64,000 nt of DNA. It comes from Planctomycetota bacterium (lineage in GTDB: Bacteria; Planctomycetota; J058; JAJDCP01). Of the stretch, positions 6,583-37,523 are shown piece after piece. The position numbers and the translations under genes were made by a program. The stretch covers positions 1,863 through 65,862 of the forward strand of contig JAJDCP010000125.1 in the NCBI GenBank assembly GCA_029260765.1, given 5' to 3'. Every line of letters starts with the position of its first letter. Position 1 is the first letter of the stretch. The notes below the pieces were generated by a model that saw nothing but the letters and a program-made list of their open reading frames with translations, was not told where the DNA came from and made no database searches.

Positions 6583-9500
6583 TTAGTCCACCTCTACGTA
6601 AGTGCCCGCGATGTACTTGAGCATCGCCTCCGATTCCTTCCCCGGAGACGTTCCCGTGGTCGCGGGGGTCCAGACGCCGTCGCCGTCGAGGCCGCCATCT
6701 TCGGCCTTGCTGATCCGAACCAGCGTCTCCTTGGGGACCGTGTTGACCCCGTGGTTGTCGACTGCGAAGCCGAACACGAACTTCATGCCGCCGGTGTCCT
6801 TGTGGAACAGGCTGTCGGTCTGGTGCATCGGCATCATCCAGCTGCGGGTGATGCTCTGGTGCGATCCGTATCGGTAGCTGGACTGGTAGCCTGTGTCTGA
6901 TGACAGGGCGAGGCCGTCAGCGCGCTCTTCGTGGGCACGGACCGTGCGCTCAGTGGCGATCCAGCCCGTGTGCTTCATGATCGTCATGCCGTAGGGTAGC
7001 GAGGGGTTGAACTTCACCCGCACACGGCAGCGGAAGGCCTTCGCCCGAGTATAGTCCTGCTCCCAGCCGACGAAGGGGCGGTCGAGGGGATTGGCGTCGA
7101 CGTGTACGTAGTCTCCTTCGTGGAAGCCCAGGTCCTTGCCGGCCTGGGGGTTCATCTGGATCTGTCGGTCGCTGACGCCGGGCGAGCGCTTGTCGCGTCG
7201 GCGCACGTCGCTGAAGCTGGTGCTCCAGACCCAGTTCCAGTCGGTGACCGACCACGAGGAGTGGACACTGTGGCGGCTCTTCGGGGTCGAGCAGAAGAAG
7301 CGGAAGCCTTGTGCCCAGAGTGGGTTCGAGGTCTTCTTGACCTCATCCCAGGGCAGCTTGAGGTTGCGTATCGTGCGCAGGTCAGGATCCATCGCGGTGG
7401 CCGGGATCCCGAAGTCGTCAGGGCGGACGTAGATGCTGCTGGAGACGATCACATTCGGCAGGTAGGGCGTCGCCTCCGGGCCTTCCCGGTGGACCATCAG
7501 GTTTTCACCGTAGGAGATGACCTCGGGCAGGTCGCAATAGGCCGACAGACGCCCGTGGTCGGTGTAGAAGGGGATGCTGTCCTCAATCTGCTCAAAGAAC
7601 GGCACGCGCGGATACGTGCGGAACAGCATCAGCGCCGACCCCGGCTGGCCGCCGTAGTCACCGGCCAGCAGCTTGTCGACCAGGTAGGGGCCGTCGTCAC
7701 CTCGGGTCGTCGTGCAATTGTCGAGCACGCGTTGGATGTAGACTTTGGAGTTCTTCTCGGTGACGAACTTCCAGTAGTCGGCGAAGCGCTGGTCGTCCGT
7801 GAGCTTGGTCAGCGCCCGGCCGACACCCGCGAAGATCTCCGCGTCATCCCGTGAGTCGTGCACCGGCTTGATGCCCGTGCCACCCCACATCTGCAGGAAT
7901 GGATTGGAGCAGGAACCACCGATCTCGAGGTCCTCGAACTCCACCCAGGAGTTGGCGGGCAGCACGACGTCCGCATACTCTGCCGAGCCCGTCCATTCCA
8001 CCTGCTGATCGACGATCATGTCGATCTTGGGGAAGATATTGACGATCAGGTTGTAGATCCACTTGGACTGGTTGATCAGGTTGGCATTGTTGTACCACAT
8101 CATCTTTGTAGGCGTGGGCATGTGGGACTTGCCGGTGAAGCACTTGCGGCCCTTGGGGGTGTCGACGACCAGGGGCTTGTCTCCGTTGCCCCAGAAAGCG
8201 ACATCTTCGCCGTAGGTAAAGTTGTGCAGGTGCTCATGGGTCATGCGGATGTCTGGGTCCAGAATCGGGGCGAAGGGATCCTCGTGGGTGTAACTCCCAA
8301 CACCGGGGCCCGTCCAAGGCGAGGCCTGGAACAGGGCGCCCTTGTAATTCCCCGCCCAGGTAAAGACACCCGCGCCGTGCTTGCCGAAGTTGCCCGTGAG
8401 CATCAGGGGCAAATGACAGGCGCGGTTGTGCAGGGTGGCGTGGAAGTAGTGGTTGGTCCCCTCGCCGTGGTGGAGGGCGACCGGGTGGCCGGCCTTTGTG
8501 GTCTCCCAGATGTCCCGGGCCAGGCGCGCGACCAGCTCCGGCTCGGCGCCGCTGATTTCCTGGACCACGGGCAGGGTGTAGTCGGCGAGGTGGCGCGTGT
8601 ACATCTCGTAGGCCGGCATCACCTCGATCTCCTGGCCGTCGAGCAGCGTGACCGTGTAGGCTCCGGTCAGGGCGGCGTTCAGGTTGGCGTGCACGCCGAC
8701 GTTCTCGCGGCTGACGGCAACGACCTTGCCCGCCTCGGCATCCCAGATGGTGAAGTCGCCGATACGCTCGCGCTGCTCGGCAGTCAAGCCCTGGATCTTG
8801 ACAGACGGCCCGTCGCGGAGGTCGGCGTTCTTGTAGCCGGCGATCACCTCTTCGGGGCGCAGCCGCCGCAGAGTGTCGGTGCGGACCAGCAGCGGGAGGT
8901 CGGTGAAGCTCTTGACAAAGGTCTCGTCGATCCAATGGTTGTCCATCAGAATCTTGGAGACGCCGAGCAGGATGGAGGTGTCCGAGAGGCCGGGCCGGCA
9001 CGCGATCCAGTAGTCGGATTTGGCGGCGGGGGCGCTGTAGTCTGGAGCGATGACGACGATCTTGCCGCCGCGCTCCATGATCTCGGTGAGCCAGTGCGAC
9101 TCGGGCATCTTGTTTTCGATCAGGTTCTTGCCGATCTGGATGGACAGCTTGGTGAAGCGGTGGTCGGCCATGTCGATGTCCGACGTCTGCAGGCCGTGCA
9201 CGAAGGGCTGGCCGGGAGCCTGGTCGCCGCGCCAGGTGTACTCGGTCCACTCACGGGCGCCCTGGGCTTCATCGTGCGAAGCACCGCGGGCATGATGGTC
9301 GATCAACCCTGTCATGTTCGCGAAGCGGAACAGGCCGAACTTGCCGACGAGTCCGTGGATGGGAAGCGACGAGCCGATCTTCATCGTGCGTGTGCCGGCT
9401 CCGTGCCAATGTTCGAACATCAGCGGGTCGTAGCCATCGGCGAGCAGCCGGCGTTTGCCCTCGTCGTCGCTGTAGGTGCGGGCGACGGCCAGCAGTCCGC

Positions 9501-25245: not shown

Positions 25246-26274
25246 CTACTTCTGGAGATACAGCCACACCTGGCCGGTCGATGTCCCGTCGATCGTCACC
25301 GTATCTCCGACCAGCACATCGAGCTTGCCGTCGCCGTTGACATCCTCGACGTGGATGCGTGTGGAGCCCGCCGGACCCGCCGCGGGCGTCGGCGCGATGA
25401 GTGTCTGGAACGCGGCGAGCTGCGCGGGGATCGCTTTGCCCAGGTCCGCGTCATCCGCACCGTCCAGGGCCTGGTTCTCGGCCCATTGGATCTCGCCCGT
25501 GTGGCTGGTAGCGAGCAGATCGAGGTCGCCGTCGCCGTCCCAGTCGACCACGAAGGGGTCGCTGTGCGCGCCCGCGGTCCGCATCACCGCGCCGTCCGCG
25601 CTGGTCAGCGCGGTGGGCCGGGGCAGGAAGCTGCCGGCCCCCTCTCCACTGAAAACGAAGAACGTGCCTTTGAAGTTGCCGACGACCAGGTCGAGGTCGG
25701 CGTCCCCATCCCAGTCTACGGCGAAGGGGCGGGTGCAGATGTTCTCGGTCAGTTGCTGGGCGCGGTCGGTGAGCTCGTGGTGCACCATCAACAGCTCGCC
25801 GTCGGTCCCCGTCAGAGCCTCTGCTGCAGCGAAGCTGCCGTCTTCTTGTCCACGCAGGACATGGAACAGCCCGACCATGACCTCATGGCCAGAGACCGAG
25901 TAGCAGCCGGAGAGAATGTCGGGGCGGCCGTCAGCGTCTACGTCCACAAACTGTGGCGTGGAGCTGGTGCATCACCAGACACCCGGGACGCTGGCGGGCT
26001 CGCCGCCTGCCTCCAGCCAGCGCTGGGCTTCGAAGTCGAAGCCGCCGTCGGATTTTCCCCGGTACAAGCTGATCTTGCCGTCCCGGAACTGTCCGACCAG
26101 CAGGTCTTTCACGCCGTCGCCATCGATGTCCGCAAGGCATGGGGCGGCGTATCCCGGGCTCTCCACCCGGATCGGCTGCCCTTCGGCAGTGACGAGCACC
26201 GGGTCCTCGAAACCGTCGCCGAAACAGGGGCCGAGCATGCCGAGAAACAGACCGGTCATGAGCAGTCGTCGCAC
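25246..26274 (-). CDS. Secreted FG-GAP/VCBS repeat protein with an in-frame TGA (candidate selenocysteine)
   Basis: ORFs 25972..26274 and 25246..25947 are in one frame and join as VPGVW-TGA-CTSSTPQFVDVDADGRPD. Signal peptide plus five DxDGDGxxDL-type repeats; 342 codons in total. Confidence 0.75.
25932..25966 (-). promoter_or_regulatory. Candidate bacterial SECIS hairpin
   Basis: CAGC-TC-c-ACG-CCACA-[GTT]-TGTGG-a-CGT-a-GA-c-GCTG. The apical loop starts with GU, 20 nt after the UGA. Confidence 0.55.
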
Positions 26275-26460
26275 AGGTGGCCTCCAGGTAAGGTGTTCTG
26301 TGCATCGTAGCAGCTCGCTGCCACAGAGGCCAGCTCGCTGCGGCGCTCGGGCGGCACAGCCTCCGGCCGGCCCGTGCTTCTCAATACACGACAGGAAGCA
26401 GGATCAGTTTGTCCGAAGGCGCGCAACGCCCACACAACCGCCGATCCAGCCCCCCAACCA

Positions 26461-26922
26461 TCAGGGGTTGGCGGAGATGGTCGCGGTCAACGTCGTCGTG
26501 AAGGTTCCCGCAGGCAGCGGCGGCACGGGGATGAACCGGAGCTCGATGGTGAAATCCGCGTCGCCGGGTCCCGCGGAGGACGCGCTCACCACGGCATCGC
26601 CGCCCGGCGTGCTGGTCGCGGAGGCCGCGTCCAGATTCCAGGCGGTGCCCTGCTCGAGCAGCAGGGTGAGTCCGATCGCCGGCCGAGTGCCAGCGATGGT
26701 CTCGTGCTCGAAGGCGGGCGCCGAGAAGACGATATGGGCCCCGGCCGGCTCATCGCAGCGGACCTGCCACAGCTCGGTCCGGCCGACTGCGGGTTGGTCG
26801 GGGTCGGCGCTCAGCACGACGTCGGCAGGCGGGGCGACGCTGACGGCCGCCCATAGGGCGAGGGGCGTGGCGAGCAGGCCTATCATGAAGACGGCGCGGG
26901 CGCTTCGAAAATCGGGATGCAC
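26461..26922 (-). CDS. Small secreted Ig-fold pilin-like protein (minor subunit)
   Basis: GAGGAGG RBS with GTG start, signal peptide, C-terminal 'LPAGTFTTTLTATIS' strand typical of chaperone-usher / SCPU pilins. Confidence 0.65.
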   Translation of the reverse strand: MHPDFRSARAVFMIGLLATPLALWAAVSVAPPADVVLSADPDQPAVGRTELWQVRCDEPAGAHIVFSAPAFEHETIAGTRPAIGLTLLLEQGTAWNLDAASATSTPGGDAVVSASSAGPGDADFTIELRFIPVPPLPAGTFTTTLTATISANP

Positions 26923-26939
26923 AGGACACCTCCTCGCTG

Positions 26940-27899
26940 CTAGGGCTGCCACGTCTGCAGGAGCGCCGCACATCGCGAGCGCACCTCCTGCGTTGCCGCC
27001 GCATCCGAGGCTCCGAGCTCGGCGACGGCGTACGCCATCTCTGGATCATCGTGGGCCCGGTAGGCCAGGGCCAGGATGTCGTAGCAGCCGGCACCCCGCG
27101 CATTGGCCTGCTCGGCAAAATACAGAGCATCGGCCGGCCGGTAGAGCTCGGCCGGCCCCTCGGTCCGCAGATAGAGCGCTGCCAACTCGCGCATCGCCAG
27201 CTGCGGCTCGCCCGGCCCGCCCACCAGAGCCCGGAGGAGGGCCTCGGCCCGCCCGGACTGGTCGGTTCCCAGCAGAGCGCGGGCCAGAAACAGGCCGCTC
27301 TCGAGGTCAGGACGCTCTTCGAAGGTCCGCTCGAGCAGGGGCAGGCCGCGCGCATGCTGGCCCGACTGAACACAAGCAATGCCGAGGTAGCGCTCCGTCT
27401 GAGCGTCCCGCTCGACAAGGCTGGTCAGAAGCTCACAGGCGCGGGCCGGCTGCCCGCTCTCCAACAGCGTCAGACCTAGCAACTTGCGGGCAGCCTGGTG
27501 TTCCGGATGCCGCACGAGGATGGCCTCGAATGCGCTGATCGCCGCGCTGTGCTGGTCGGCCAGGAACAAGGCCTTTCCGAACTCGTAGCGCAGGCGCTCG
27601 TCTCCCGGCCAGGCCTCGAGCAGCTGCGCGTAGACCGCAGGCAGCTCGCTGAGCCGCTGCATCTGCTGGTAGCCGAGCTGCAGAGCCTTATGCGCGGCTG
27701 GCTCCTCGGGGTGCCGCTGCAGATACACGCGGGCCGCTTCGGCCGAAGCCCACGGGTCGTCGCGGGGAACGAAGGCCGAGTCCGCGGCCCGGGCTGTGCC
27801 GGGAGCCGCAGGCGGCGGTTCTCGCAGCATCTGCCCCAGCAGCAGCCCGAGTAGACCGGCTACAGCCAGGACCCACAGGAATCGTCTACGAGCCCTCAT
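26940..27899 (-). CDS. Membrane-anchored TPR protein
   Basis: N-terminal TM helix, several TPR units, 'YDILALAYRA'. Confidence 0.8.
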   Translation of the reverse strand: MRARRRFLWVLAVAGLLGLLLGQMLREPPPAAPGTARAADSAFVPRDDPWASAEAARVYLQRHPEEPAAHKALQLGYQQMQRLSELPAVYAQLLEAWPGDERLRYEFGKALFLADQHSAAISAFEAILVRHPEHQAARKLLGLTLLESGQPARACELLTSLVERDAQTERYLGIACVQSGQHARGLPLLERTFEERPDLESGLFLARALLGTDQSGRAEALLRALVGGPGEPQLAMRELAALYLRTEGPAELYRPADALYFAEQANARGAGCYDILALAYRAHDDPEMAYAVAELGASDAAATQEVRSRCAALLQTWQP

Positions 27900-27920
27900 C
27901 GGACTGCCTCCCTGCCCGAC

Positions 27921-28388
27921 TCAATGCGTGAACGTTACCGTCACCGTGGCCCCCCAGGAGCCGGCCGGAGCGTGACCGAAGGCATTGACCTCACCTGTGA
28001 CCAACACGGTCCACAAGCTCTCGCCGTAGCCGAGGCAACCGAAGGTCACCGCTTCGGGCATGCCATTGACCGCGACGACTTCGTCGGGTGCGGTGACGTA
28101 GTTGCCGATCGGGCCGTTGCCACCATTCGGATTGATGCGCATCCTCCAGTCGAGCTCGGGTCCGTCGGGATCGATCTCGGCGACGGCGCTCCAGGGGATG
28201 TTGGCCACGACCGCGATGGGCAGGAGCTCCGTGGTGTTGAGCGTTGTGGCTAAGTCCCCATCAGGGCAGATGTCGACGACGAAGCTGGGATCGACCTCGA
28301 CGTCGATCCGGACGGTGCAGACATCGTCCGCGAGGGCGGCCGTCGCAGCCAGGCATGAGAGGATGATCAATAAGACGTTGCGAGACAT
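27921..28388 (-). CDS. Secreted pilin-like protein (putative major subunit, class-5/alpha chaperone-usher-like)
   Basis: AAGGAG RBS, signal peptide ending ALA, mature N-terminus 'DDVCTVRIDVEVDP', C-terminus 'APAGSWGATVTVTF'. Confidence 0.65.
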   Translation of the reverse strand: MSRNVLLIILSCLAATAALADDVCTVRIDVEVDPSFVVDICPDGDLATTLNTTELLPIAVVANIPWSAVAEIDPDGPELDWRMRINPNGGNGPIGNYVTAPDEVVAVNGMPEAVTFGCLGYGESLWTVLVTGEVNAFGHAPAGSWGATVTVTFTH

Positions 28389-28429
28389 GCTGTGAGCTCC
28401 TTTGCTCAAGGGAACCGACGCCCGGGCTA

Positions 28430-29995
28430 TCATTCCCCGTGGCGCCAGCTGCGCGTGATGCGCAGAGGTTCTAGGCCCGCCCGCTCGACATTGAGCGTCA
28501 GGCTATAATCGCCGTTCTGCAGCGGCCGCGCGAGCGGAAAACTGAGCTCGGCCTGTTCTCCGGGCAGGAGCCACACCCCTGATCCCCGGACGACTTCTTC
28601 GAGCACCCTGCCGAAGGGATCGGCGATGCTCAGGGAAACGCGGAGGGGCACGTGAACCTTACCGGGGTTCGCCAGCCCGCAGATGAACGTGAGCTCCGAC
28701 TCGCCTGTCGAGCGCAGCGACTCGAGGCTGATCTGGGGCTCGGGTCGCTCGCTGCCGAGCAGGGCGACCGGAATCCGTACACTCCCTCCCAGCGAGCCGT
28801 CGTCGGGCGTCACGACAAGCTCGAGCCAGGCGTAGAGGGGTTCGCCGTTGCTGGTCCGCCCACGGACGCTGGCCGCGATGCGGCGGTCCCTGTGGCCGGA
28901 CAGCCAGACCGACTCGGGACGCACCACCAGCCAGTCGGGAGCCGGCTGCCCAGCAAGCCCGACGATGCTGACGCGCAGGCCCGCCGCCACCTCGGCCGTG
29001 TTCTCGAGCAGGATCGGCAGCATGCGGCTACTGCCCGCCCCGGTGGAGAGCTCGAGCGCTTGCGGAGAGACCTGTAGCGAGGCGACGACGCGCGGCAGCA
29101 AGCCCGCCTGGGTCGGAAATTCGGCCGCCTCGACTTCCAGCTCGAAAGACTGCTTGCGGCGGTCCTTGCCGGCGCGGACCTCCACATCCAGGCGGTAGGG
29201 GCCGCTGGCCAGAGGCTCGGGCAGCTTCTCTTCAACCCGGATGCGGGCCCCGGGCAGGATGAGGATCTTCAGCCGGTTTGCTTGCAGCCGCTGCGAACGG
29301 GACGGCATGATCAGAGGAAAGCCCGGCCCGACCTGTTTCCCGGAAGGCAACCGGACCAGCGCTGCGTCGAGCTCGACCTCGTGCGGTTGAGCGCTCGGGT
29401 TTGTGAGCCAGACGCGGGCGACCGCCAGACCATCCCGTTCGACCAGGCCGCCCTCTTCGATCAAGAGCTGGCTCAGCGCCGGCTGCATGCCTCTGGCAAC
29501 CTGGACTTCAAGCCGGATCAGATAACGGAAGCGGACGCGCACGTTGACCTCCCGGTCTTCGCTGGCGGCCGGGCCGTCGCTGGCGGACAGCTGGGAGATC
29601 AGCAGGCCGTACTGCAGCAGCGCCGGGCAGTCAGCGGGCAGGAAGATCTCCCCCCGGACCTGGCTCGTCGAACCCGCTGTCAGGCTCAGGCGTTCGTCGC
29701 TGAGGCTGAGATCTCCGGTCGGGCCGTCCAGGAGCGGGGTCAGCGTTCCGGTCTCGGTCTGGCCCAGGGCGACCGGGACGACCGAGACTTCGAGGGGCTC
29801 TGGACCACACAGGACGTCGACCTCAAAGGGGATACTGTCGCGCGGGTTGCCCTCGAGCTTCAGGATCAGAGGCGTAACCCGAAAGAGCGCGCCGGCCGCA
29901 GGTTGTGGCTCGTTGTCTGGCGTCTGGCCGTCGGCGGCCGCGAGCAGCAGCAACAGCAGGCCGAGCCGCGTCAGGATCTCCTGGCAGCCGCTCAT
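28430..29995 (-). CDS. Periplasmic PapD-like chaperone, internally duplicated
   Basis: Signal peptide and two units starting 'FRVTPLILKL' and 'LQVSPQALEL'; 'VNVRVRFRYLIRL', 'LTNPSAQPH' / 'LANPGKVHV', 'GPYRLDV' / 'GDYSLTL'. Confidence 0.65.
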   Translation of the reverse strand: MSGCQEILTRLGLLLLLLAAADGQTPDNEPQPAAGALFRVTPLILKLEGNPRDSIPFEVDVLCGPEPLEVSVVPVALGQTETGTLTPLLDGPTGDLSLSDERLSLTAGSTSQVRGEIFLPADCPALLQYGLLISQLSASDGPAASEDREVNVRVRFRYLIRLEVQVARGMQPALSQLLIEEGGLVERDGLAVARVWLTNPSAQPHEVELDAALVRLPSGKQVGPGFPLIMPSRSQRLQANRLKILILPGARIRVEEKLPEPLASGPYRLDVEVRAGKDRRKQSFELEVEAAEFPTQAGLLPRVVASLQVSPQALELSTGAGSSRMLPILLENTAEVAAGLRVSIVGLAGQPAPDWLVVRPESVWLSGHRDRRIAASVRGRTSNGEPLYAWLELVVTPDDGSLGGSVRIPVALLGSERPEPQISLESLRSTGESELTFICGLANPGKVHVPLRVSLSIADPFGRVLEEVVRGSGVWLLPGEQAELSFPLARPLQNGDYSLTLNVERAGLEPLRITRSWRHGE

Positions 29996-31377
29996 GGGGC
30001 GTCCTCCCGAATGATCCGTGGTGAGATGAAGATCGCGATCTCGACGTCCTCTTCCAGCGTGTCGATCCTCGAAAACAGCCAGCCCAGGCCCGGAATGTCG
30101 CCCAGGAACGGGACCTTGACGATGCGCTCGACCTCGCGGCGCTGGACCAGCCCCCCGATGACGATGGTCTGGCCGTCGGCCACCTGGACCGTAGTCGACA
30201 CGTTGCGGGTGTTCAGGGTCGGCAGGCGGCTGTCCTGGTCGCGGGCGACGACATCGCTCGGCCGCACTTCGTCGCTGACCTCGGCCCGGCGGATGTCGAC
30301 CAGGACCTGCGAGCCGCGGATGCGAGGCAGGATGTCGAGGACGATGCCCGACCGGACCGACTCCGCCTCACGGACGAAGCGCGTCGGGTCACCGACCGTG
30401 AAGTAGGTCTCTTTGCCGATGTGGATGCGCGCTGGCATGCCGTTTCTGGCCATGACCCGCGGCGAGGCCCGCACCGAGAGGTAGCCCTCGGACTCCAGGG
30501 CACGCACGAACGCCGAGGTGAACTTGAAGGAGCGGAGCCCTTCGAGCTCCTCCGGCCCGAAGGCAGAGGAAGCCGTCAGCTGCTGCAGCCCCAGGTTGCC
30601 GAACAGGTCGCTCGAGGCGCGGAAGCCCTGCACGCCGTCGGCCGCGAACTCGAAACGGGAGTCCGGGGCGTAGGCGCAGATGATCGCCTCAAACATGACC
30701 TGCGGGATCGGCTGATCGAGGCGCTCAAGCTCCCCCATGATACTCTGGGCGAGCCTGGCCGGAGCGCGCACGACGATGATGTTGCCCGGCTCGCTGACCC
30801 TGATGTTCGCACGGGCGTACAAGGGCAGCAGCTCGACCAGCTGCGCGATCTCGAGGTGGGCCGGCCGGAACTCGTATGTCTCGGCGATCAGCGAGAACAG
30901 GGCCGAGCCCGGATCGGACACCCCGACCAGGTAGGTCTCGCGCGACTTCCGGCTGTGATAGCCCAGCGGCAGCAGGATACTCTGGAGGGCGATGTCGAAG
31001 GCGACCTGCTCGAACTGCGCGTTCGTCCGGCCCCTGACCTGATCGTCCAGAACCAGATTGACACCCGCTTGGGACGCCAGTGAGCGGAGCGCATCGCGCA
31101 CATCGGTGTCGACGAAGAAGTCGCTGACCAGAGGGCCCGCGCTTGCACTGCCGGCGTCCACAACAGCAAACGCTTCACTGGGCGGCCGCGGCTGCTGCCG
31201 GGTCGCGACGGGCAGAGTCGGCTCCCAGTCGCGCCGTGAGACTTCCAGGGCCTGGGCAAAGAGCTCTTCGATCGAGCGCGCCCGAGGTTTGGTGGACGTG
31301 CAGGCGGGGATCATGTGGAGCGCGACGAGCAGGAGTGCTCCTGGCCAGCTTCTCTTGATCTCTCGGTGGTTCAGCAC
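29992..31377 (-). CDS. Outer-membrane secretin (type II/III family) with lipoprotein signal
   Basis: STN-like 'DTDVRDALRSLASQAGVNLVLD', N domain, 'PQVMFEAII', 'ASPRVMARNG', 'TTVQVADGQTIVIGGL', 'KVPFLGDIPGLGWLFS'. Lipobox IPAC. Confidence 0.92.
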   Translation of the reverse strand: MLNHREIKRSWPGALLLVALHMIPACTSTKPRARSIEELFAQALEVSRRDWEPTLPVATRQQPRPPSEAFAVVDAGSASAGPLVSDFFVDTDVRDALRSLASQAGVNLVLDDQVRGRTNAQFEQVAFDIALQSILLPLGYHSRKSRETYLVGVSDPGSALFSLIAETYEFRPAHLEIAQLVELLPLYARANIRVSEPGNIIVVRAPARLAQSIMGELERLDQPIPQVMFEAIICAYAPDSRFEFAADGVQGFRASSDLFGNLGLQQLTASSAFGPEELEGLRSFKFTSAFVRALESEGYLSVRASPRVMARNGMPARIHIGKETYFTVGDPTRFVREAESVRSGIVLDILPRIRGSQVLVDIRRAEVSDEVRPSDVVARDQDSRLPTLNTRNVSTTVQVADGQTIVIGGLVQRREVERIVKVPFLGDIPGLGWLFSRIDTLEEDVEIAIFISPRIIREDAP

Positions 31378-31796
31378 GGCGCTCTCCTGGCTTGTTCTCC
31401 AGACACAAGCATCGTGGAGCAAGGGCCATGCCAACCTCTCGGAGCCCGCAGCCCAGCGCCCGCCGAGCAGGGTACGTGCGGATTCCGGACACCTGCCCGC
31501 GCTGCGACCAAGGATTGTGAGGAAAACTCAAGACACGGGTGGCTCGGATCGCGAGGCTGCCAGCCGCTGCGGGAAGTTTCCAGAGGTGTTGGAAAGGTCG
31601 CTTGTTGGGATTTGTCCAGTTTTCCGACAGTTCAGCTGCCGGCTTTTTCGACGGCCAGAACAGTCCTGGCGGAGCTGGGTTCAAGCACGCGGTATGCTCA
31701 GCGGGTAGCGCTACCCAAGCTCAAGCCATGCGGAAAATGGGCCTCTATGACGGAAAGACCCACGGCCCCCCAGGCACCTGGCCCAAACGGAGCTGC

Positions 31797-31871
31797 TGTC
31801 CCAGCGATCGTCACCGTATCGACGACCAGCGCATCGAGCTCGCCGTCGCCGTTGCCATCCTCGACGCCGAT
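31797..31871 (-). repeat. Degenerate direct copy of the 3' end of the FG-GAP gene (25282-25356)
   Basis: 75-bp ungapped alignment with about 9 mismatches; encodes IGVEDGNGDGELDALVVDTVTIAG versus IHVEDVNGDGKLDVLVGDTVTIDG. Confidence 0.85.
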
Positions 31872-31910
31872 CGAGGATCTGGCGCAGCGCTGCGATCGTG
31901 GAGTCTCCAG

Positions 31911-32032
31911 ACTGACCTCAGCATAAGTAGGGGAGGGGTTCACCCCCTCCCGCAAGCGAACCGTTCGAGTCGGCGAGGAGGGGTAAACCCCGCCCCTACG
32001 GGATGATGTCCTGAACTTATGCTGAGGTCAGT
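31911..32032. mobile_element. 122-bp MITE-like element enclosing an inverted GTAG-REP pair
   Basis: Perfect 18-bp terminal inverted repeat ACTGACCTCAGCATAAGT (31911-31928 and 32015-32032). Internal REPs GTAGGGGAGGGGTTCACCCCCTCCC and reverse GTAGGGGCGGGGTTTACCCCTCC. Confidence 0.7.
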
Positions 32033-32120
32033 ACGCTCAGCAGGCGAAGCGGCGGAAATCTGATTGCAAGAGGGCCTCAAATGACCGATCTTCGTCTAAC
32101 CGCTGCGGGGACCCTGGCGC

Positions 32121-33887
32121 GTGGATTCAGGTCGGGAGTATACGGAGCGGACAAACCTGCGCGCCCTGCGTGAGAAGGCGGAGGTCATTCTCAGCAGCGG
32201 GAGCGGACCTTTATTGGCGCCGCCTGACGGCGACCTGCGCGAGCTTGTACACGAGCTGCAGACGTACCACATCGAGCTCCAACTACAAAACGACGAGTTG
32301 CAGCGCGCACAGCTCGAGCTCCGCGCGGCCCTGAGCCGGTCAACAACGCTCTATGACTACGCCCCCGTAGGATATATGACACTGGACCAGAATTGGATGG
32401 TCCGCGATGCCAACCTCCGGATGGCCGAGATGCTCGGGGTCGAGAGGAACCGCGTGAGGGGACGGCGCGTCAGTGACTTCGTGGCCTTCTCAGACCAGGA
32501 CGCTCTGTACCTCACGTTGCGTGGGCTCTCGCGCGACAGGCAACGCCGGGAGCTCGACCTCAGGCTGAAAACGGCCAACGACGGCTCCTTCTGGGCCTCG
32601 AGCGAGTGGCTGGCGTTCGAACACACGGGCGCGCGCGCCGAAGTGCGCGTCACCTTTAGCGACATCTCCGCGCGCAAACGCATGGAGGAGGAGTTGCGGC
32701 AGGCCAAACAGGCCGCTGAAGCTGCCAACCTGACCAAGAGCCGCTTTTTGGCCAACATGAGCCATGAGATTCGCACGCCGATGAACGGAGTGATCGGTAT
32801 GGCGAGTCTCCTGGCTGAGACCAATCTCGACGCGGACCAGAAAGATTTTGTGGCTACGCTCACGTCCTCGGCCGAGGACCTGTTGACGCTCATTGATGGG
32901 ATCCTGGACCTCTCGAAGATCGAAGCGGGCGGGATCGAGCTGGAGGCCATCGACTTCGACCTTCCTTTGGTCACAAAGAACGTTATGGCCCTGTTCTCGC
33001 AGGAAGCCAAGGACCGGCAGATTGGCCTGTCGTTCGTGTGCGACCCGAGGGTTCCCCCGTCCGTCGTGGGCGATCCGGTTCGGCTTCGCCAGGTCTTGAG
33101 CAACCTTGTCAGCAACGCGCTGAAGTTCACCAAGGAAGGGACGGTCGACGTGCGTGTGGGACTCCCCGACGCCGGGGCCGAGGCAGACCTCGTGCGCTTC
33201 GAGGTGAGAGACACGGGAATCGGTCTGAGTCCAGCGGCCCAGGAGAAGATCTTCAGGCCCTTTGTCCAAGCCGATCCATCGACGACCCGCAGGTATGGGG
33301 GAACGGGTCTTGGCCTGGCGATCTCCCAGCGTCTCGTGGGGTTGATGGCGGGTGAGCTGGGCGTCGAGAGCCGGCTCGGCGGCGGCTCGCTGTTCTGGTT
33401 CACGGCAAGGCTGAGTCCCACGCGCGTGCCGTCCCCTGGCGACGAGCACGTGTCGAGCGGGTCCGTGACTCTCGAGGCCCCGAGGAACGGCGGCAGAGTG
33501 AACCACGGACTTCGGGTCCTGGTTGCCGAAGACATGCTGGTCAACAGGCTCGTGGTCGTCAGTATGTTGGAGAAGCTCGGCTGCCGTGTGGACACGGTCG
33601 AGAATGGCAAGCAGGCCATCCAGGCTGTCTGCACGAGCAGCTATGATCTCGTGCTGATGGATTGCCACATGCCCCTGCTAGACGGATATAGCGCAACCGC
33701 GCGGATCCGTGCCAGCGAAGACGGCGCCACGCGCATCCCGATCATCGCGATGACAGCATCGGCTATGTCCGGCAGCCGAGAGCGTTGCATGGAGGCGGGT
33801 ATGGATGGCTTTGCCAGCAAACCCCTCACGTTGGAGAAACTGGACCTGCTCATCACGAAGTGGCGCAATCCTCAGGATCCGGTCTGA
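32121..33887 (+). CDS. PAS-domain hybrid sensor histidine kinase / response regulator
   Basis: Coiled coil 'ELQLQNDEL', PAS, H-box 'FLANMSHEIRTPMNG', N/G1/F/G2 boxes, REC 'LMDCHMP'. Confidence 0.95.
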   Translation: MDSGREYTERTNLRALREKAEVILSSGSGPLLAPPDGDLRELVHELQTYHIELQLQNDELQRAQLELRAALSRSTTLYDYAPVGYMTLDQNWMVRDANLRMAEMLGVERNRVRGRRVSDFVAFSDQDALYLTLRGLSRDRQRRELDLRLKTANDGSFWASSEWLAFEHTGARAEVRVTFSDISARKRMEEELRQAKQAAEAANLTKSRFLANMSHEIRTPMNGVIGMASLLAETNLDADQKDFVATLTSSAEDLLTLIDGILDLSKIEAGGIELEAIDFDLPLVTKNVMALFSQEAKDRQIGLSFVCDPRVPPSVVGDPVRLRQVLSNLVSNALKFTKEGTVDVRVGLPDAGAEADLVRFEVRDTGIGLSPAAQEKIFRPFVQADPSTTRRYGGTGLGLAISQRLVGLMAGELGVESRLGGGSLFWFTARLSPTRVPSPGDEHVSSGSVTLEAPRNGGRVNHGLRVLVAEDMLVNRLVVVSMLEKLGCRVDTVENGKQAIQAVCTSSYDLVLMDCHMPLLDGYSATARIRASEDGATRIPIIAMTASAMSGSRERCMEAGMDGFASKPLTLEKLDLLITKWRNPQDPV

Positions 33888-34115: not shown

Positions 34116-37100
34116 TCATGGGGCGGAATCGGTGACGTCCTCGATGGCGAGCAGGATCAAACCCGACCCCGCACTTGCATGGGCGAGGCGGCGTGCGTTG
34201 AGCCGCATCCTGCGCAGCCCGAGCTCCTCAAATTCGTGCGACATCTCGAAGTCCTCAAAGCTGACGTTCCTTGGCAGGATCTCCTCGAGCAGCTCACGCA
34301 ATCTGGGGATGTCCCATTGCTTGTTGCCCAGCTCGTAGAGCGAGTTCCCAATGGTCTGGTCAGGGATGGTACCGAAGGTCTTGTAGAAAGACGCGTTGAC
34401 CGAGATGACACGCAATTGCTCGTCGAGCACAATCAAGGGTTCGCGGACAGTGGCCACAATGCTCCTGGCCACGCTTTCCTGCGCAGACTGCAGTGACGCC
34501 GCCGCTCGTTTGCGTTCGGTGATATCGATAAAGGTGATCACGGTTCCCTCGATGACGTTCTCCAGGGTACGGTAGGGCCTGATGCGCATCAGGAACCACA
34601 AACCCTCGTGGGACTCGACCTCGGCTTCCACGCTGTTCAAGGTGTCGAGTACGCTCTGTATGTCGTCCACCAGGCAGTCGTAGTTCTTCAGCTTGGCTGC
34701 GATATGACCTACCGGCCGGCCGAGGTCCGACGGGATGAGGTTGATCACCCTGGTGGTGTCCGGAGTGAAGCGGGTGATGCACAGCTGCTGGTCCACGAAT
34801 AATGTGCCCACTCCCGTCCCCGCCAGCAGGTTGTTCATGTCATTGTTGGCGCGCGACAGGTCCGTCAGCTTGGTCTGCAGCTCGATGTTGACCGTGGCCA
34901 GCTCCTCGTTGACCGATTGCAGCTCCTCCTTTGAGGTCTCCAACTCTTCATTGGTGGATTGCAGCTCCTCGTTGACCGACTGGGCTTCCTCGTTTGCGGA
35001 CTTGAGCGACTCGTTGGAGGTCTCCATCTCCTCCAGAGCCGTCTGAAGGTACTCTTCTTTGGCCCGAAGCTCCTGTTTCAGCGAGCTGATCTGCATTTTC
35101 AGCTCGTCGGCTCGCCGTCCCTCCGGAATCGCGGACATGTCCTTTGTCGGGCCCTGCTCCGTTGCGGGGGTCTGCTCTTCCAGCACGACAAGGAAGAGGT
35201 CTCGTTTGCCTCCATCGCCGCTTCGGAGCACCGGTGTGACGATCAGGCGGGCTGTGATGGCATCGCCGTTGGTCTTGATCTGCAGCCCGGGACAGTCCAC
35301 GGCCACCTGTGTGGTGCTGACGCGGTGCAGCGCAGTGGTGAGCTCTCTTCTCAGCCCTTCCCTGGCCATGGGCAGGATGAACATGCTGGCGTTGCCAGGG
35401 GCTGGTTCCAGATACTTGCCGGTGCGGCCATAGATATGAAGGATCTCGCCACGTCTGGTGACCAGGATGCCGGCCTGGACGTAGTGCTGAAGCAGGGCGT
35501 GTTCAATAAGCTCACGCAGGTTGTCTTTCCCGTCTGCTGGGCCCTGTCCACGCGACGTGATCGGCAGCCCGGGAAGGGCTCGCCGCCACGACGGCATCAG
35601 ATTCCCCAAAGCAGGACGCCGGACTCCCGGCACCCTTTCCTGGCGCAGATACAGCTTCTCCTTGCGATCCAGCGTTTTGAAGAGCGTCTCGACGCCTCCG
35701 ACCGTCTCCGACGTCCCCAGGAAGAGCACTCCCTCGGTGAGCAGAGCGTAGTGGAACAGGGCCATGAGTTTCTTCTGCAGATCCCCATTCAGGTAGATCA
35801 GCAGGTTGCGACAGCTGATCATGTCCAGCTTGGAAAAAGGCGGGTCTTTGATCACATCCTGTTGAGAGAAGATCATCTGATCGCGGATGACCTTGTGGAT
35901 GCGATAGACGCCAGCCTCCGGGTCATGAACAAAGTAACGAGCCAGCCGTTCAGGGGTGACGTCCAGGGCGATGCTGACGGGAAAGACACCACCGCGGGCC
36001 CGCTCGATGGACCGCTTGTCTATGTCGGTGGCGAACACCTGCACTTTGAGCGTCAGCCCCAGAGTTTCCATATGTTCCTGGATCAGGATGGCGATGGAAT
36101 AGGCCTCCTCACCGGTCGAACACCCGCACACCCAGACCCTGACGCTGTCATTCCCGGCCTTGTTGGCCAGAATGCGCGGGATGCCTTTGGTTTGGAGGGC
36201 TGCAAAGGCGTCCGCGTCGCGAAAGAAACAGGTGACGCCGATCAGCAGCTCGTGGAACAAGGCCTCGATTTCCGCTGGAGACGTTTGCAGAAAGTGGATG
36301 TAGTCGTAGGCTTCGTCGATCTGGTGCAGAGCCATGCGCCGCTGCACGCGGCGCACCAGAGTGTTCGTCTTGTAGTCGGAAAAATCGTGTCCGGTCTGGG
36401 ACCGCAACACGCTGCAGATCTTGTTGAGCATGTTGACGAAGCTGGCAGACACGGGAGCGCCGTGCGTGGGGGGGCGCCTGCTGTAGGCGTGGCTCACGTA
36501 GGCGATCAGTTGGGCAGGCATCTCTTCTGGTCGCAGCACGTAGTCGACCATACCGGTGGCAATAGCGCTCCGCGGCATGCCGTCGAACTCGGTCGAGTCG
36601 GGTGCCTGCGCCATAACCATGCCGCTCTCTCCCTTCACGGCACGCACGCCAAGTGTGCCGTCACTGCCGGTTCCCGCGAGCACGATACAGATGGCGCGGT
36701 CCTGTTGGTCTTGGGCCAAGGAGCGAAAGAAGAAGTCTATGGGCAACCGCATTCCGCGCGGCGCGGTCGGCTTGAAGAGCTGCAGCGAGCCATGGAGCAG
36801 GACCATGTCCCGGTTGGGGGGGATGATGTAGGTGCAGTTGGGCTGGAGTTTCATGCCATCCTGAACCTCGAAGACCTGCATCCCTGTGTAGCGCTTGACC
36901 AGCTCGCTCAGCATGCTCTTGTGGTCCGGGGCCAGATGCTGCACCAGAACGAAGGACAGACCGCTCTTGGTTTTGTCGGGCATCGCAGAGAAGAAGGCCT
37001 CGAAAGCCGCCAGGCCCCCTGCCGACGCCCCGATACCCACGATGGGGAAGACCTGCACCGGCTCGCGCAGGGGTTCTTCCTCAGGATCGGGAGCTGCTCG

Positions 37101-37220
37101 GAGCGCTGGGACCTCGGTTGCAGTGAGCTCTTGGGGAGGCCTGGACGGCGTGCCGCCCTCTCCTGCAACATTGCCCGGCAAGTCTGGTGCGTTATCTTCC
37201 CCGGGCTCCTCATCAATCAT
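34116..37220 (-). CDS. cheBR: CheB methylesterase / CheR methyltransferase / coiled-coil / PAS fusion
   Basis: 'GIGASAGG', 'VQHL', 'GTGSDG', 'GVTCFFRD', 'GCSTGEEAYS', 'SCRNLLIY', 'NEELQSTNEELETSKEELQS', two PAS domains. Confidence 0.95.
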   Translation of the reverse strand: MIDEEPGEDNAPDLPGNVAGEGGTPSRPPQELTATEVPALRAAPDPEEEPLREPVQVFPIVGIGASAGGLAAFEAFFSAMPDKTKSGLSFVLVQHLAPDHKSMLSELVKRYTGMQVFEVQDGMKLQPNCTYIIPPNRDMVLLHGSLQLFKPTAPRGMRLPIDFFFRSLAQDQQDRAICIVLAGTGSDGTLGVRAVKGESGMVMAQAPDSTEFDGMPRSAIATGMVDYVLRPEEMPAQLIAYVSHAYSRRPPTHGAPVSASFVNMLNKICSVLRSQTGHDFSDYKTNTLVRRVQRRMALHQIDEAYDYIHFLQTSPAEIEALFHELLIGVTCFFRDADAFAALQTKGIPRILANKAGNDSVRVWVCGCSTGEEAYSIAILIQEHMETLGLTLKVQVFATDIDKRSIERARGGVFPVSIALDVTPERLARYFVHDPEAGVYRIHKVIRDQMIFSQQDVIKDPPFSKLDMISCRNLLIYLNGDLQKKLMALFHYALLTEGVLFLGTSETVGGVETLFKTLDRKEKLYLRQERVPGVRRPALGNLMPSWRRALPGLPITSRGQGPADGKDNLRELIEHALLQHYVQAGILVTRRGEILHIYGRTGKYLEPAPGNASMFILPMAREGLRRELTTALHRVSTTQVAVDCPGLQIKTNGDAITARLIVTPVLRSGDGGKRDLFLVVLEEQTPATEQGPTKDMSAIPEGRRADELKMQISSLKQELRAKEEYLQTALEEMETSNESLKSANEEAQSVNEELQSTNEELETSKEELQSVNEELATVNIELQTKLTDLSRANNDMNNLLAGTGVGTLFVDQQLCITRFTPDTTRVINLIPSDLGRPVGHIAAKLKNYDCLVDDIQSVLDTLNSVEAEVESHEGLWFLMRIRPYRTLENVIEGTVITFIDITERKRAAASLQSAQESVARSIVATVREPLIVLDEQLRVISVNASFYKTFGTIPDQTIGNSLYELGNKQWDIPRLRELLEEILPRNVSFEDFEMSHEFEELGLRRMRLNARRLAHASAGSGLILLAIEDVTDSAP

Positions 37221-37523
37221 CCGACACTCCTGTACGAAAACCGAGTGACACCCGGGGGCGGCTGTGCACAACGAGGTTCGATCAATCTGCACGGATACGT
37301 TCTAACGGAGGGTCGTTCCCCGTCAACCATTTCGGCCGGAAGTGTCACAAGTGCGCCATTGCCCCGTCGGGGTTCCTTCGGGCACAGGATGACAGGCTTG
37401 GAGGGAGGCACATGAGCCTCTGAGGGGGTACTCTTCTTGCGCCGATGGGGGTCGTTCAGCTCTTGGGAGGGCTCTCTGTGCGGGTACCGTGCTCCCTTTC
37501 AAGGCGGGCCCACGCGCACAACC

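Follow-up and report, generated by a model that had tools for sequence, protein, structure and literature searches.

The stretch of DNA analysed here (the window, 64,000 nucleotides) carries five tightly packed genes on the minus strand, which lie at the coordinates assigned to them in a preliminary description and have a GC3 of 0.81–0.86, as is typical of coding sequence. They encode a lipoprotein secretin (29992..31434, the longest open reading frame, recognised by Pfam Secretin), a secreted protein of 521 residues that we call BIG and consider a candidate chaperone or assembly factor (28430..29995, described by its family profile and by self-alignment), small subunit 1 (27921..28433, from the open reading frame and its translation), a protein with TPR repeats (26940..27899, recognised by Pfam TPR families) and small subunit 2, a member of a pilin-like family (26461..26973, matched by the family profile A3). 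The start of the BIG gene overlaps the stop of the secretin gene by 4 nt. Pfam and NCBIfam searches of the five proteins found no usher, ATPase or prepilin-type leader, as had been claimed from inspection; the module shows no usher, T2SS or type IV pilus ATPase, inner-membrane platform or prepilin-type leader.

The product of 29992..31434 is assigned to the secretin superfamily, as its C-terminal domain matches Pfam Secretin (PF00263) over the full model (1–169) with 126.7 bits (cut-off 27.5, E 9.1e-37). Translation probably starts at a GTG at 31377, giving a protein of 461 residues of the minimal type, with weak matches to N0 and N3 followed by the secretin domain. The N-terminus agrees with its description as a lipoprotein, a hydrophobic stretch being followed by IPAC, a lipobox-like motif. 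Its nearest solved relatives are PilQ, GspD, phage pIV and RcpA. Its matches to the NCBIfam secretin subfamilies, PilQ, GspD and MshL among them, all score below the respective cut-offs, and it belongs to a group of 25 BIG-linked secretins that form a clade of their own in our tree (support 1.0).

BIG is a protein of about 520 residues with an N-terminal signal-like segment, predicted to be Sec-exported and to fold into four Ig-like domains. The internal duplication noticed earlier is confirmed by aligning the family profile with itself (hhalign, columns 3–266 against 277–497, probability 95.6%, E 1.3e-8), and by domain the values are 77.7% for D1 against D3 and 95.9% for D2 against D4. By these profile comparisons, BIG arose from two domains that were duplicated in tandem as one unit (D1–D2, D3–D4). 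The family is uncharacterised and comprises 162 cluster representatives at E≤1e-3. Among 75 members compared, 64 have an N-terminal signal-like stretch and none has a C-terminal hydrophobic helix (a 19-residue window with mean Kyte-Doolittle of at least 1.6 in the last 60 residues). BIG is predicted to be soluble and periplasmic.

What BIG is related to is less easily said, as no Pfam or NCBIfam family matches it above threshold. The label “PapD-like” given to it before is not borne out by sequence: neither PapD_N nor PapD_C appears in the Pfam searches at E≤1, BIG included, or at E≤10, and neither matches any of the 75 family members at E≤0.01. In hhalign comparison with ten E. coli K-12 chaperones, full-length BIG reaches a probability of 11%, its C-terminal half 30.8% and D3 53%, a range not set apart from the 28% of a negative control in which the chaperones were compared to the pilin alignment. 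The name does occur nearby, in that one member of a BIG cluster is listed in IMG as “P pilus assembly chaperone PapD” (a name only) and Atlas places a cluster named “chaperone PapD” at rank 18 (0.92, under the family-naming bar) for the BIG member P0021. Other leads point to the WxL chaperones. WxLIP_PGBD matches 3/75 and WxLIP_HBD 5/75 members, all below cut-off, the best match being that of D1 of the BIG-like protein at locus L017 to WxLIP_PGBD (19.5 bits, cut-off 27.3, model positions 24–119 of 121); the pair PF06030 and PF11797 is absent above threshold from the 75 members. The Atlas model of P0021 matches, over the N-terminal half, two-domain proteins of 265–391 residues (TM by row 0.53–0.71) from clusters that carry WxLIP_PGBD, WxLIP_HBD or fn3_5, in rows that are again under the family-naming bar. 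Against PDB sequences, A1 and A3 gave nothing below E 0.29.

Small subunit 2 is one of a group of related Sec-exported, pilin-like proteins of about 175 residues, of which 73 were compared. A conserved alternating amphipathic segment follows directly after the signal peptide in 65 of them and is missing in the other 8, subunit 2 among them, while the conserved last strand coincides with the end of the protein in all 73. Both forms lie side by side in G004 and in L039–L041. Such a division is what donor-strand pili would be expected to show if their cap subunit accepts a strand but donates none, though the segment could simply be the strand with which a complete fold begins. Subunit 2 probably starts at 26922 or at an ATG at 26886, matches the A3 profile with 110 bits, aligned from profile position 35 onward, and is 31% identical to its G004 paralogue. 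It has the C-terminal strand and lacks the N-terminal one, in agreement with the first description, and is therefore a candidate cap or tip subunit, accepting a strand only. Leaders throughout the subunit family are of the Sec type (A-x-A and then Q), in line with the reported absence of class III signal peptides.

Subunit 1, which probably starts at an ATG at 28388 (155 residues), is a more difficult case. Its ends are as quoted before, with a mature N-terminus DDVCTVRIDVEVDP that has the pattern of an alternating strand and a C-terminal end APAGSWGATVTVTFTH, and it occupies the position held in the sister locus G004 by a pilin that bears the N-terminal strand. It had been taken for the main pilin, which sequence comparison does not support: it is a near-orphan with a single homologue (88% identity). 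Its match to the A3 profile is limited to the C-terminal strands (8.5 bits), and the hhalign probability is <1% for A3 and 10.5% for the PIL2 subgroup; its similarity to the pilin family is weak, and homology cannot be shown from these comparisons. The proposed resemblance to CfaB is also not borne out, there being no Fimbrial or CS1-pilin match in Pfam at E≤1 or E≤10, and indeed no Pfam or NCBIfam match of any kind to subunit 1. More broadly, the Fimbrial, CS1 and SCPU pilin families match neither the 73 family members at E≤0.1 nor subunits 1 and 2, and PF13731 (WxL) matches 0/73 pilins at E≤0.1, 0/8 at E≤10 and nothing relevant in five locus-carrying genomes. NCBIfam CPR_Pam_pilin_C matches 1/73 (E 0.026), which falls short of membership. 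Here too there are names: UniRef calls the pilin P0211 “WxL domain-containing” (a name only), and the nearest named Atlas clusters to the pilin P0210 are WxL, at 0.94 with 179 features in common, and SCPU, at 0.93 with 175, both under the family-naming bar.

The fifth protein matches TPR_19 with 46.4 bits (cut-off 25) as well as TPR_14 and other TPR families, and begins with a hydrophobic segment that may be a membrane anchor or a signal, which is compatible with its earlier description as a membrane-anchored TPR protein. NCBIfam gives generic TPR matches only, including PilW (3.3e-4) and Tgl (0.1). In G004 the corresponding position holds a homologue (E 1.6e-34) and a TPR-like open reading frame follows the BIG-like gene in G010; phmmer found no homologue in loci other than G004. 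We consider it a lineage-specific accessory, possibly a factor for assembly or docking of the secretin.

The association of these genes proves to be strongly conserved. We examined 26 loci, of which L016 and L045 coincide, leaving 25 distinct places; in 23 of the 25 the pilin or pilins, the secretin and BIG are contiguous on one strand; the other two are interrupted by contig ends. BIG adjoins the secretin in all 23 complete loci. All 25 lie in Planctomycetota, and three carriers are in culture (Rubripirellula obstinata, Novipirellula herctigrandis and Neorhodopirellula pilleata). A pilin homologue is also seen in Rosistilla ulvae and Mariniblastus fucicola. When 401 genomes of the phylum were searched, the A3 pilin profile matched three, the same three that have strong BIG matches. 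Weaker BIG-like genes occur in six further genomes, with a secretin adjoining in five but not in L022, and small secreted proteins with similar termini stand beside the BIG-like gene in L017, L018 and L021. De novo clustering gave no further gene family shared by at least 13 loci, antisense shadow open reading frames excepted, and neither an ATPase nor a platform gene recurs over about 8 kb around the module (23/25 loci, many genera). The secretin, BIG and two to three small beta-rich, Sec-exported subunits are thus inherited together across Planctomycetota. Our literature searches found no published description of a pilin, a chaperone-like protein and a secretin in this combination.

What holds these parts together could be the building of a fibre, and we put at about even the prospect that the module is a secretin-coupled fibre made by a chaperone and donor-strand exchange with no ATPase. 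The hybrid pilus first suggested is supported in part, by the conserved association, the distinct secretin clade, the lack of an usher match in the genome and of T2SSE matches on the contig, the Sec-type leaders and the two forms of the subunit family; its assignment to classical chaperone-usher families is not supported. In such a fibre, the Sec-exported subunits would be held in the periplasm by BIG, much as PapD-type or DUF916-type chaperones hold theirs, and those with an N-terminal strand would polymerise by donor-strand exchange (subunit 1 here, the “T-x-SQKFTVTVP” pilins elsewhere). Subunit 2 would be the first to enter, capping the fibre as an acceptor of a strand only. Folding energy, and not ATP, would drive the thin growing fibre out through the secretin; BIG, being duplicated, could hold two subunits at the same time and so take the usher's role in handing them on, and the TPR protein, confined to this lineage, may aid assembly or docking of the secretin.

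The same genes might instead form a minimal system for secretin export or display, in which the small proteins are monomeric cargo, lectins or adhesins and BIG either serves in the periplasm as adaptor or gate-keeper or is itself a surface protein. A conserved trio demands a joint function but not polymerisation, the sub-threshold matches of the BIG Ig-like domains (FixG_C, NPCBM_assoc, fn3_5, Big_14) are of a generic E-set or adhesin type, and the case for donor strands is one of sequence pattern alone. However, cargo export through secretins as it is known needs a pseudopilus and an ATPase, neither of which is linked here, and monomeric cargo explains neither the sharp split between subunits that have the N-terminal strand and those that lack it nor the strictness of the C-terminal one. 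Moreover, the motifs of the BIG family are strongly conserved and there is no anchor, and a part of a machinery therefore fits better than a variable adhesin. We consider this alternative unlikely, if still a serious contender.

Less probable again is that these are accessory parts of a T2SS or type IV pilus machine with its ATPase, platform and true pilins elsewhere in the 10.4-Mb genome, an explanation that the preliminary description had itself raised. The genome does contain 12 secretin and 40 T2SSE ATPase matches, PilQ and GspD are the families nearest to the secretin, and five other secretins of the genome, which is 93% complete, have no ATPase within 10 kb either, because of which an ATPase may act in trans, a point that also counts against the ATPase-free fibre. 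None of the 40 T2SSE matches is on the contig that carries the window, however, and the conserved surroundings described above, the separate secretin clade and the Sec-type rather than prepilin leaders of the subunits all speak against it, as does the finding of the three-component unit in 3/401 genomes when type IV pilus and T2SS genes are far commoner.

A divergent but true chaperone-usher member, with a PapD-family chaperone, class-5 CfaB-type pilins and an usher lost or replaced, is very improbable: the IMG and Atlas “PapD” names and the D3 value of 53% favour it, but the PapD, Fimbrial and CS1 searches and the hhalign control described above go against it, and the 93%-complete genome has no match to the usher (PF00577) or to PapD_N (PF00345), with E. 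coli as a positive control for both. The sequence tests for classical membership (PapD, usher, Fimbrial/CS1) were all negative.

The secretin-coupled fibre can be compared with known systems on both sides. With the secretins of type IV pili (PilQ), T2SS (GspD), filamentous phage (pIV), Tad (RcpA) and T4bP it shares a true secretin domain, the small N0–N3–secretin size is similar to that of pIV or MshL, and the predicted lipobox recalls the lipidation of self-piloting or T4b secretins. The TPR partner recalls the pilotins PilW, PilF and Tgl, though the NCBIfam matches are weak. The ATPase, platform, prepilin peptidase and class III pilin linked to known secretins have no counterpart in the module, and to our knowledge all known secretins are paired with an inner-membrane ATPase machine or its phage equivalent. 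Chaperone-usher pili of Proteobacteria (Pap/Fim, Csu, CS1/CFA-I) likewise have several small Sec-exported beta-sandwich paralogues per operon, a periplasmic Ig-domain partner and no ATPase; some of their subunits have an N-terminal strand and others lack it, and a conserved C-terminal strand reaches the protein end. However, their outer-membrane part is an usher where the planctomycete module has a secretin, and their chaperone has two domains and about 220 residues compared to the four-domain tandem duplicate of about 520 in BIG. We know of no donor-strand pili of double-membraned bacteria that are not usher-dependent. An ATPase-free module of pilin-like, chaperone-like and secretin proteins would, if true, be a new route for fibres across the outer membrane, and it bears on whether folding energy alone opens the secretin gate.

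Weak leads point to two kinds of donor-strand pili of single-membrane bacteria described in 2026, the WxL/DUF916 (Elr) and Pam pili. The Elr report (10.64898/2026.10.17.759780) shows chaperone-built donor-strand pili without an usher in Bacillota, made in Enterococcus faecalis of WxL pilins and the DUF916/DUF3324 chaperone ElrE; it gives a C-terminal membrane helix for 96.7% of WxL chaperones and reports the system as confined to Bacillota. Elr resembles the planctomycete module in having neither usher nor ATPase, and its donor strand is N-terminal on the mature pilin, to which the planctomycete N-terminal segment is comparable by its pattern. The leads that run from the pilins to WxL and from the BIG domains to WxLIP_PGBD and WxLIP_HBD are weak, and the planctomycete proteins do not reach the Pfam thresholds for WxL, DUF916 or DUF3324. 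BIG differs in having no C-terminal membrane helix (0/75), and the module differs in its lack of LPxTG or sortase anchoring and in a host with two membranes and a secretin.

Usher-free, chaperone-built donor-strand pili are also shown for Pam of CPR bacteria, whose parts are the pilins PamA/B, the membrane-anchored PapD-like chaperones PamC/D and a single-domain tip pilin without a linker strand, PamT, all with Sec leaders (PMC13278184). Donor-strand Ig-like pilins, a strandless tip, assembly by chaperones only and Sec leaders would, on that description, be common to both, the planctomycete side being predicted, and the Atlas look-alikes of the N-terminal half of BIG include Saccharimonadota clusters with WxLIP_PGBD. 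By the same description, Pam differs in its membrane-anchored chaperones, its two-domain pilins and a host without an outer membrane.

Taken with these likenesses, the module may represent a new “chaperone-secretin” pilus pathway of double-membraned bacteria, with donor-strand fibres distantly homologous to those of WxL/Elr (Bacillota) and Pam (CPR), a soluble, duplicated DUF916/PapD-like chaperone, ATP-free extrusion and a secretin in the usher's place, a proposal that we make tentatively and with less than even confidence. Such modules might make some of the planctomycete surface fibres of unassigned origin. If the pathway is real, a growing donor-strand fibre can open a secretin, the pairing of chaperone and pilin is older and wider than Bacillota, and chaperone/donor-strand systems of the Elr and Pam type are not limited to bacteria with a single membrane, contrary to the report that WxL is restricted to Bacillota.

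The five genes of the candidate operon all lie on the minus strand, in the order secretin (29992-31434), a 521-residue candidate chaperone or assembly protein here called BIG (28430-29995), small subunit 1 (27921-28433), a TPR protein (26940-27899) and small subunit 2 (26461-26973). All five open reading frames have coding-type third-position GC (0.81-0.86), and they either overlap, as where the secretin stop and the BIG start share 4 nucleotides, or are separated by gaps of a few tens of bases. Pfam recognises the secretin (126.7 bits) and confirms the TPR repeats; BIG and the two small subunits match no Pfam or NCBIfam family. In the secretin a hydrophobic stretch is followed by a lipobox-like IPAC; of 24 related secretins, at least 15 share this feature. 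A scan of 25900-32200 gave no promoter-like and one terminator-like site, fewer than in shuffled sequences, and carries no information in so GC-rich a genome. The sequencing runs listed as containing this DNA are four DNA runs from a single biofilm-metagenome study, one of which may be its source, and include no RNA run. Immediately downstream of the operon, two ORFs with FG-GAP/VCBS repeats follow in series (25246-25947 and 25972-26274, both minus strand; Pfam FG-GAP_3, E 1.3e-20 and 5.1e-11); they may be a single gene interrupted by a stop or frameshift, or two separate ones. On the other side a hybrid PAS-HisKA-HATPase-REC kinase (32121-33887, plus strand) diverges from the operon, with a CheB-CheR-PAS fusion protein beyond it (34116-37292, minus strand).

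The association of these genes, which the preliminary description had proposed to check by a survey of gene neighbourhoods, is conserved. A genome of the same class and another family (G004) has the identical five-gene order of secretin, BIG, pilin, TPR and pilin. When one genome of each species was scanned for the pattern with a tighter alignment of 20 sequences (A4), 23 loci were found, all in Planctomycetota (Pirellulaceae, Planctomycetaceae and unclassified members), including Neorhodopirellula pilleata Pla100, Rubripirellula obstinata CECT 8602 and Novipirellula herctigrandis CA13. We compared these with the loci of the window, G004 and a third genome, G288, giving 26 loci, of which 25 are distinct because L016 and L045 are the same G288 locus (contig C4, JAWKUB010000004.1, 897,973 bases). 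One or more pilins, the secretin and BIG are contiguous on one strand in 23 of the 25, and in the two exceptions (L023 and L036) a contig ends near the pilin gene. The genes usually run from the major pilin through a divergent pilin and the secretin to BIG, often with a third pilin as well; the major pilin of Novipirellula herctigrandis lies at 7836-8450 of locus L035. When all ORFs were clustered de novo, the pilin, secretin and BIG were the sole families present in 24-25 loci; beyond this triad the clustering gave shadow ORFs on the antisense strand and, in 12 loci, a response regulator, and no recurrent ATPase or platform family. The regulator sits upstream of the major pilin, and one was confirmed as REC plus GerE/LuxR; together with the kinase beside the window operon, this hints at two-component control of the module. 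Among the compared loci the TPR gene was detected only in the window and G004; a TPR-like ORF also follows a BIG-like gene in another genome (G010).

A word-index search with BIG returned only BIG itself, and scanning 1.84 billion representatives in full with HMMER gave a family of 162 proteins at E<=1e-3 (76 at E<=1e-30), most of them 520-580 residues long. An alignment of 75 full-length members was made (A1). Aligning this profile to itself with hhalign pairs columns 3-266 with 277-497 (probability 95.6%, E 1.3e-8), a tandem duplication, and of the four Ig-like domains D1 matches D3 (77.7%) and D2 matches D4 (95.9%), with no similarity between D1 and D2. The earlier reading of BIG as internally duplicated is thus right. 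D1 carries in addition a highly conserved alternating segment (consensus VrFVTqYlLR, for example VRFVTQYLLR) that is absent from D3. A signal-like stretch at the N-terminus is present in 64 of the 75 members and a hydrophobic helix at the C-terminus in none, and so BIG is a soluble protein, periplasmic or secreted. Sub-threshold Ig-like Pfam matches among the 75 were to Cep192_D3 (17), FixG_C (15), Cep192_D6 (10), fn3_5 (6), WxLIP_HBD (5) and WxLIP_PGBD (3), and in ten members scanned singly most such matches fell in D3 (about residues 320-410). A sequence search of the PDB with A1 gave nothing under E 0.29; the rows returned for A1 and for the pilin alignment described next were at chance level (ribosomal L15, ApaG, myelin P2).

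Small subunit 2 shares 31% identity with a protein of the G004 locus, and a four-sequence profile recovered 77 relatives, 73 of which were aligned (A3). None of these can be placed in a Pfam or NCBIfam family, and PF13731 (WxL) gave nothing relevant in five locus-carrying genomes. Their leaders are all of the Sec type, with A-x-A followed by Q at the end, and in 73 of 73 a conserved strand (consensus AGDYxTTVTGTVTAN) forms the extreme C-terminus. In 65 members a conserved alternating segment, T-x-SQKFTVTVP in consensus, opens the mature protein ahead of the next strand, ISITAP; the other eight, among them subunit 2 of the window and the second G004 paralogue, are missing precisely this segment and start at the ISITAP position. 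Forms with and without it share one locus in G004 and in L039-L041. Subunit 1, whose termini are found in the ORF translation as first quoted, is close to an orphan, its one homologue being 88% identical. It scores 8.5 bits against the A3 profile, over the last two strands, and by hhalign below 1% against A3 and 10.5% against a divergent pilin subgroup (PIL2); BLASTP gave no significant alignment to subunit 2 or to the G004 paralogue. It does occupy the position held in G004 by the family member bearing the N-terminal strand, and is laid out like the pilin family: a signal peptide comes first, then an alternating strand that ends in Pro, and at the C-terminus a strand of similar kind. Judged from its sequence and position, subunit 1 is probably a divergent subunit.

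Across 401 genomes sampled evenly from the phylum, A1 matches nine at E<=1e-10, three of them strongly, and A3 matches those same three. A secretin adjoins five of the six weaker BIG-like genes, and three of these (L017, L018 and L021) are also accompanied by small secreted proteins whose N- and C-termini show similar patterns. In a FastTree phylogeny of 36 secretin domains, the 25 secretins adjoining BIG genes of the A1 or L018 type form one clade (support 1.0), which excludes seven other secretins of the window genome. Related modules with other gene orders were also seen. At L017 (7358-11277, genome G300) and L021 (633-5003, genome G205) the order is a small secreted protein, a BIG-like protein, a secretin of 447-448 residues and a small conserved lipoprotein (118-140 residues, no family match) that may be a pilotin. 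At L019 (6717-12650, genome G087) and L020 (2917-7933, genome G232) two Cys-rich secreted proteins of 229-287 residues, which at L019 match no Pfam family, come before a BIG-like gene and a long secretin (919 residues at L019, 629 at L020) whose N-terminal region is extended.

These facts fit a dedicated module in which the secretin, BIG and the small subunits act jointly without an ATPase. The most economical mechanism suggested by the sequences, for which we consider the case evenly balanced, is a secretin-coupled fibre built by a chaperone and donor-strand exchange, as the preliminary description proposed, but with the parts assigned to other families. The small subunits would fold on BIG in the periplasm, and those with an N-terminal strand would polymerise by donor-strand exchange onto subunit 2, which would act as a cap that only accepts a strand; the fibre would then exit by way of the secretin. 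Being duplicated, BIG could, speculatively, provide two subunit-binding sites, which would suit a hand-off role. A rival reading, in which the small proteins are exported or displayed without polymerising, we think unlikely.

It is less probable still that the module is an accessory to a T2SS or T4P machine encoded elsewhere. Matches in the genome number 12 for secretins and 40 for T2SSE-family ATPases, none of the latter on the window's contig, and six of the secretins have an ATPase within 10 kb. The window secretin is among those that do not; this is suggestive only, since the same is true of five others. True membership of the classical chaperone-usher family is very improbable: the search for an usher proposed at the outset found no match to Usher, nor to PapD_N, in the 10.4-Mb genome (93% complete), and a Pfam scan found PapD_N and PapD_C in none of the 75 BIG members. 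Comparison by hhalign with an alignment of ten E. coli K-12 PapD-type chaperones gave values on both sides of a negative control: 11% for full-length BIG, 30.8% for its C-terminal half and 53% for D3, with 28% for the control, in which the chaperones were set against the pilin alignment. What probability remains falls to something we have not considered.

A secretin-coupled donor-strand fibre would combine parts of known kinds in a way not found in print in the searches made, which among the titles and opening lines of abstracts listed showed no paper joining WxL-type or donor-strand pili to a secretin or to Planctomycetota, and found none on WxL together with Planctomycetota. A bolder reading, in which pili are made by a new "chaperone-secretin" pathway, is offered tentatively. 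Crateriform structures have been termed enigmatic (PMC5394234, in the part available), and in the literature on these structures and pili, at the level of the titles and opening lines of abstracts listed, no paper assigns genes to planctomycete fibres. That these modules are the source of planctomycete crateriform fibres generally is a speculation of low probability; the A1/A3 system was detected in only 3 of the 401 sampled genomes.

Several links lead to known donor-strand systems. One pilin (P0211) is named "WxL domain-containing protein" in UniRef, and for another (P0210) the nearest named Atlas clusters are WxL (0.94, 179 shared features) and SCPU (0.93, 175). One member of a BIG cluster bears the IMG name "P pilus assembly chaperone PapD", and the BIG member P0021 has Atlas clusters at 0.92-0.95 for WxLIP_PGBD, WxLIP_HBD and the name "chaperone PapD"; the N-terminal half of its Atlas model resembles two-domain proteins of 265-391 residues in WxLIP- and PapD-named clusters (TM 0.53-0.71 by row). 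D1 of the L017 BIG-like protein aligns with positions 24-119 of the 121 in the WxLIP_PGBD model and scores 19.5 bits, where the cut-off is 27.3. All these links fall short of curated thresholds or consist of names or language-model look-alikes; they are leads and not membership. The nearest unnamed clusters to P0210 are commonest in Acidobacteriota and one look-alike cluster of P0021 in Pseudomonadota, and therefore related modules may exist outside Planctomycetota. Usher-less pili that assemble by donor-strand exchange under the guidance of membrane-anchored chaperones are described in the available parts of two 2026 preprints (10.64898/2026.10.17.759780; PMC13278184). The former, which in that part mentions neither secretins nor Planctomycetes, reports the Elr pilus of E. 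faecalis, with WxL pilins and a DUF916/DUF3324 chaperone, as confined to Bacillota; PMC9772566 likewise mentions neither Planctomycetes nor Gram-negative bacteria. The latter describes, in the part available, the Pam pilus of CPR bacteria, whose tip pilin is a single domain without a linker strand.
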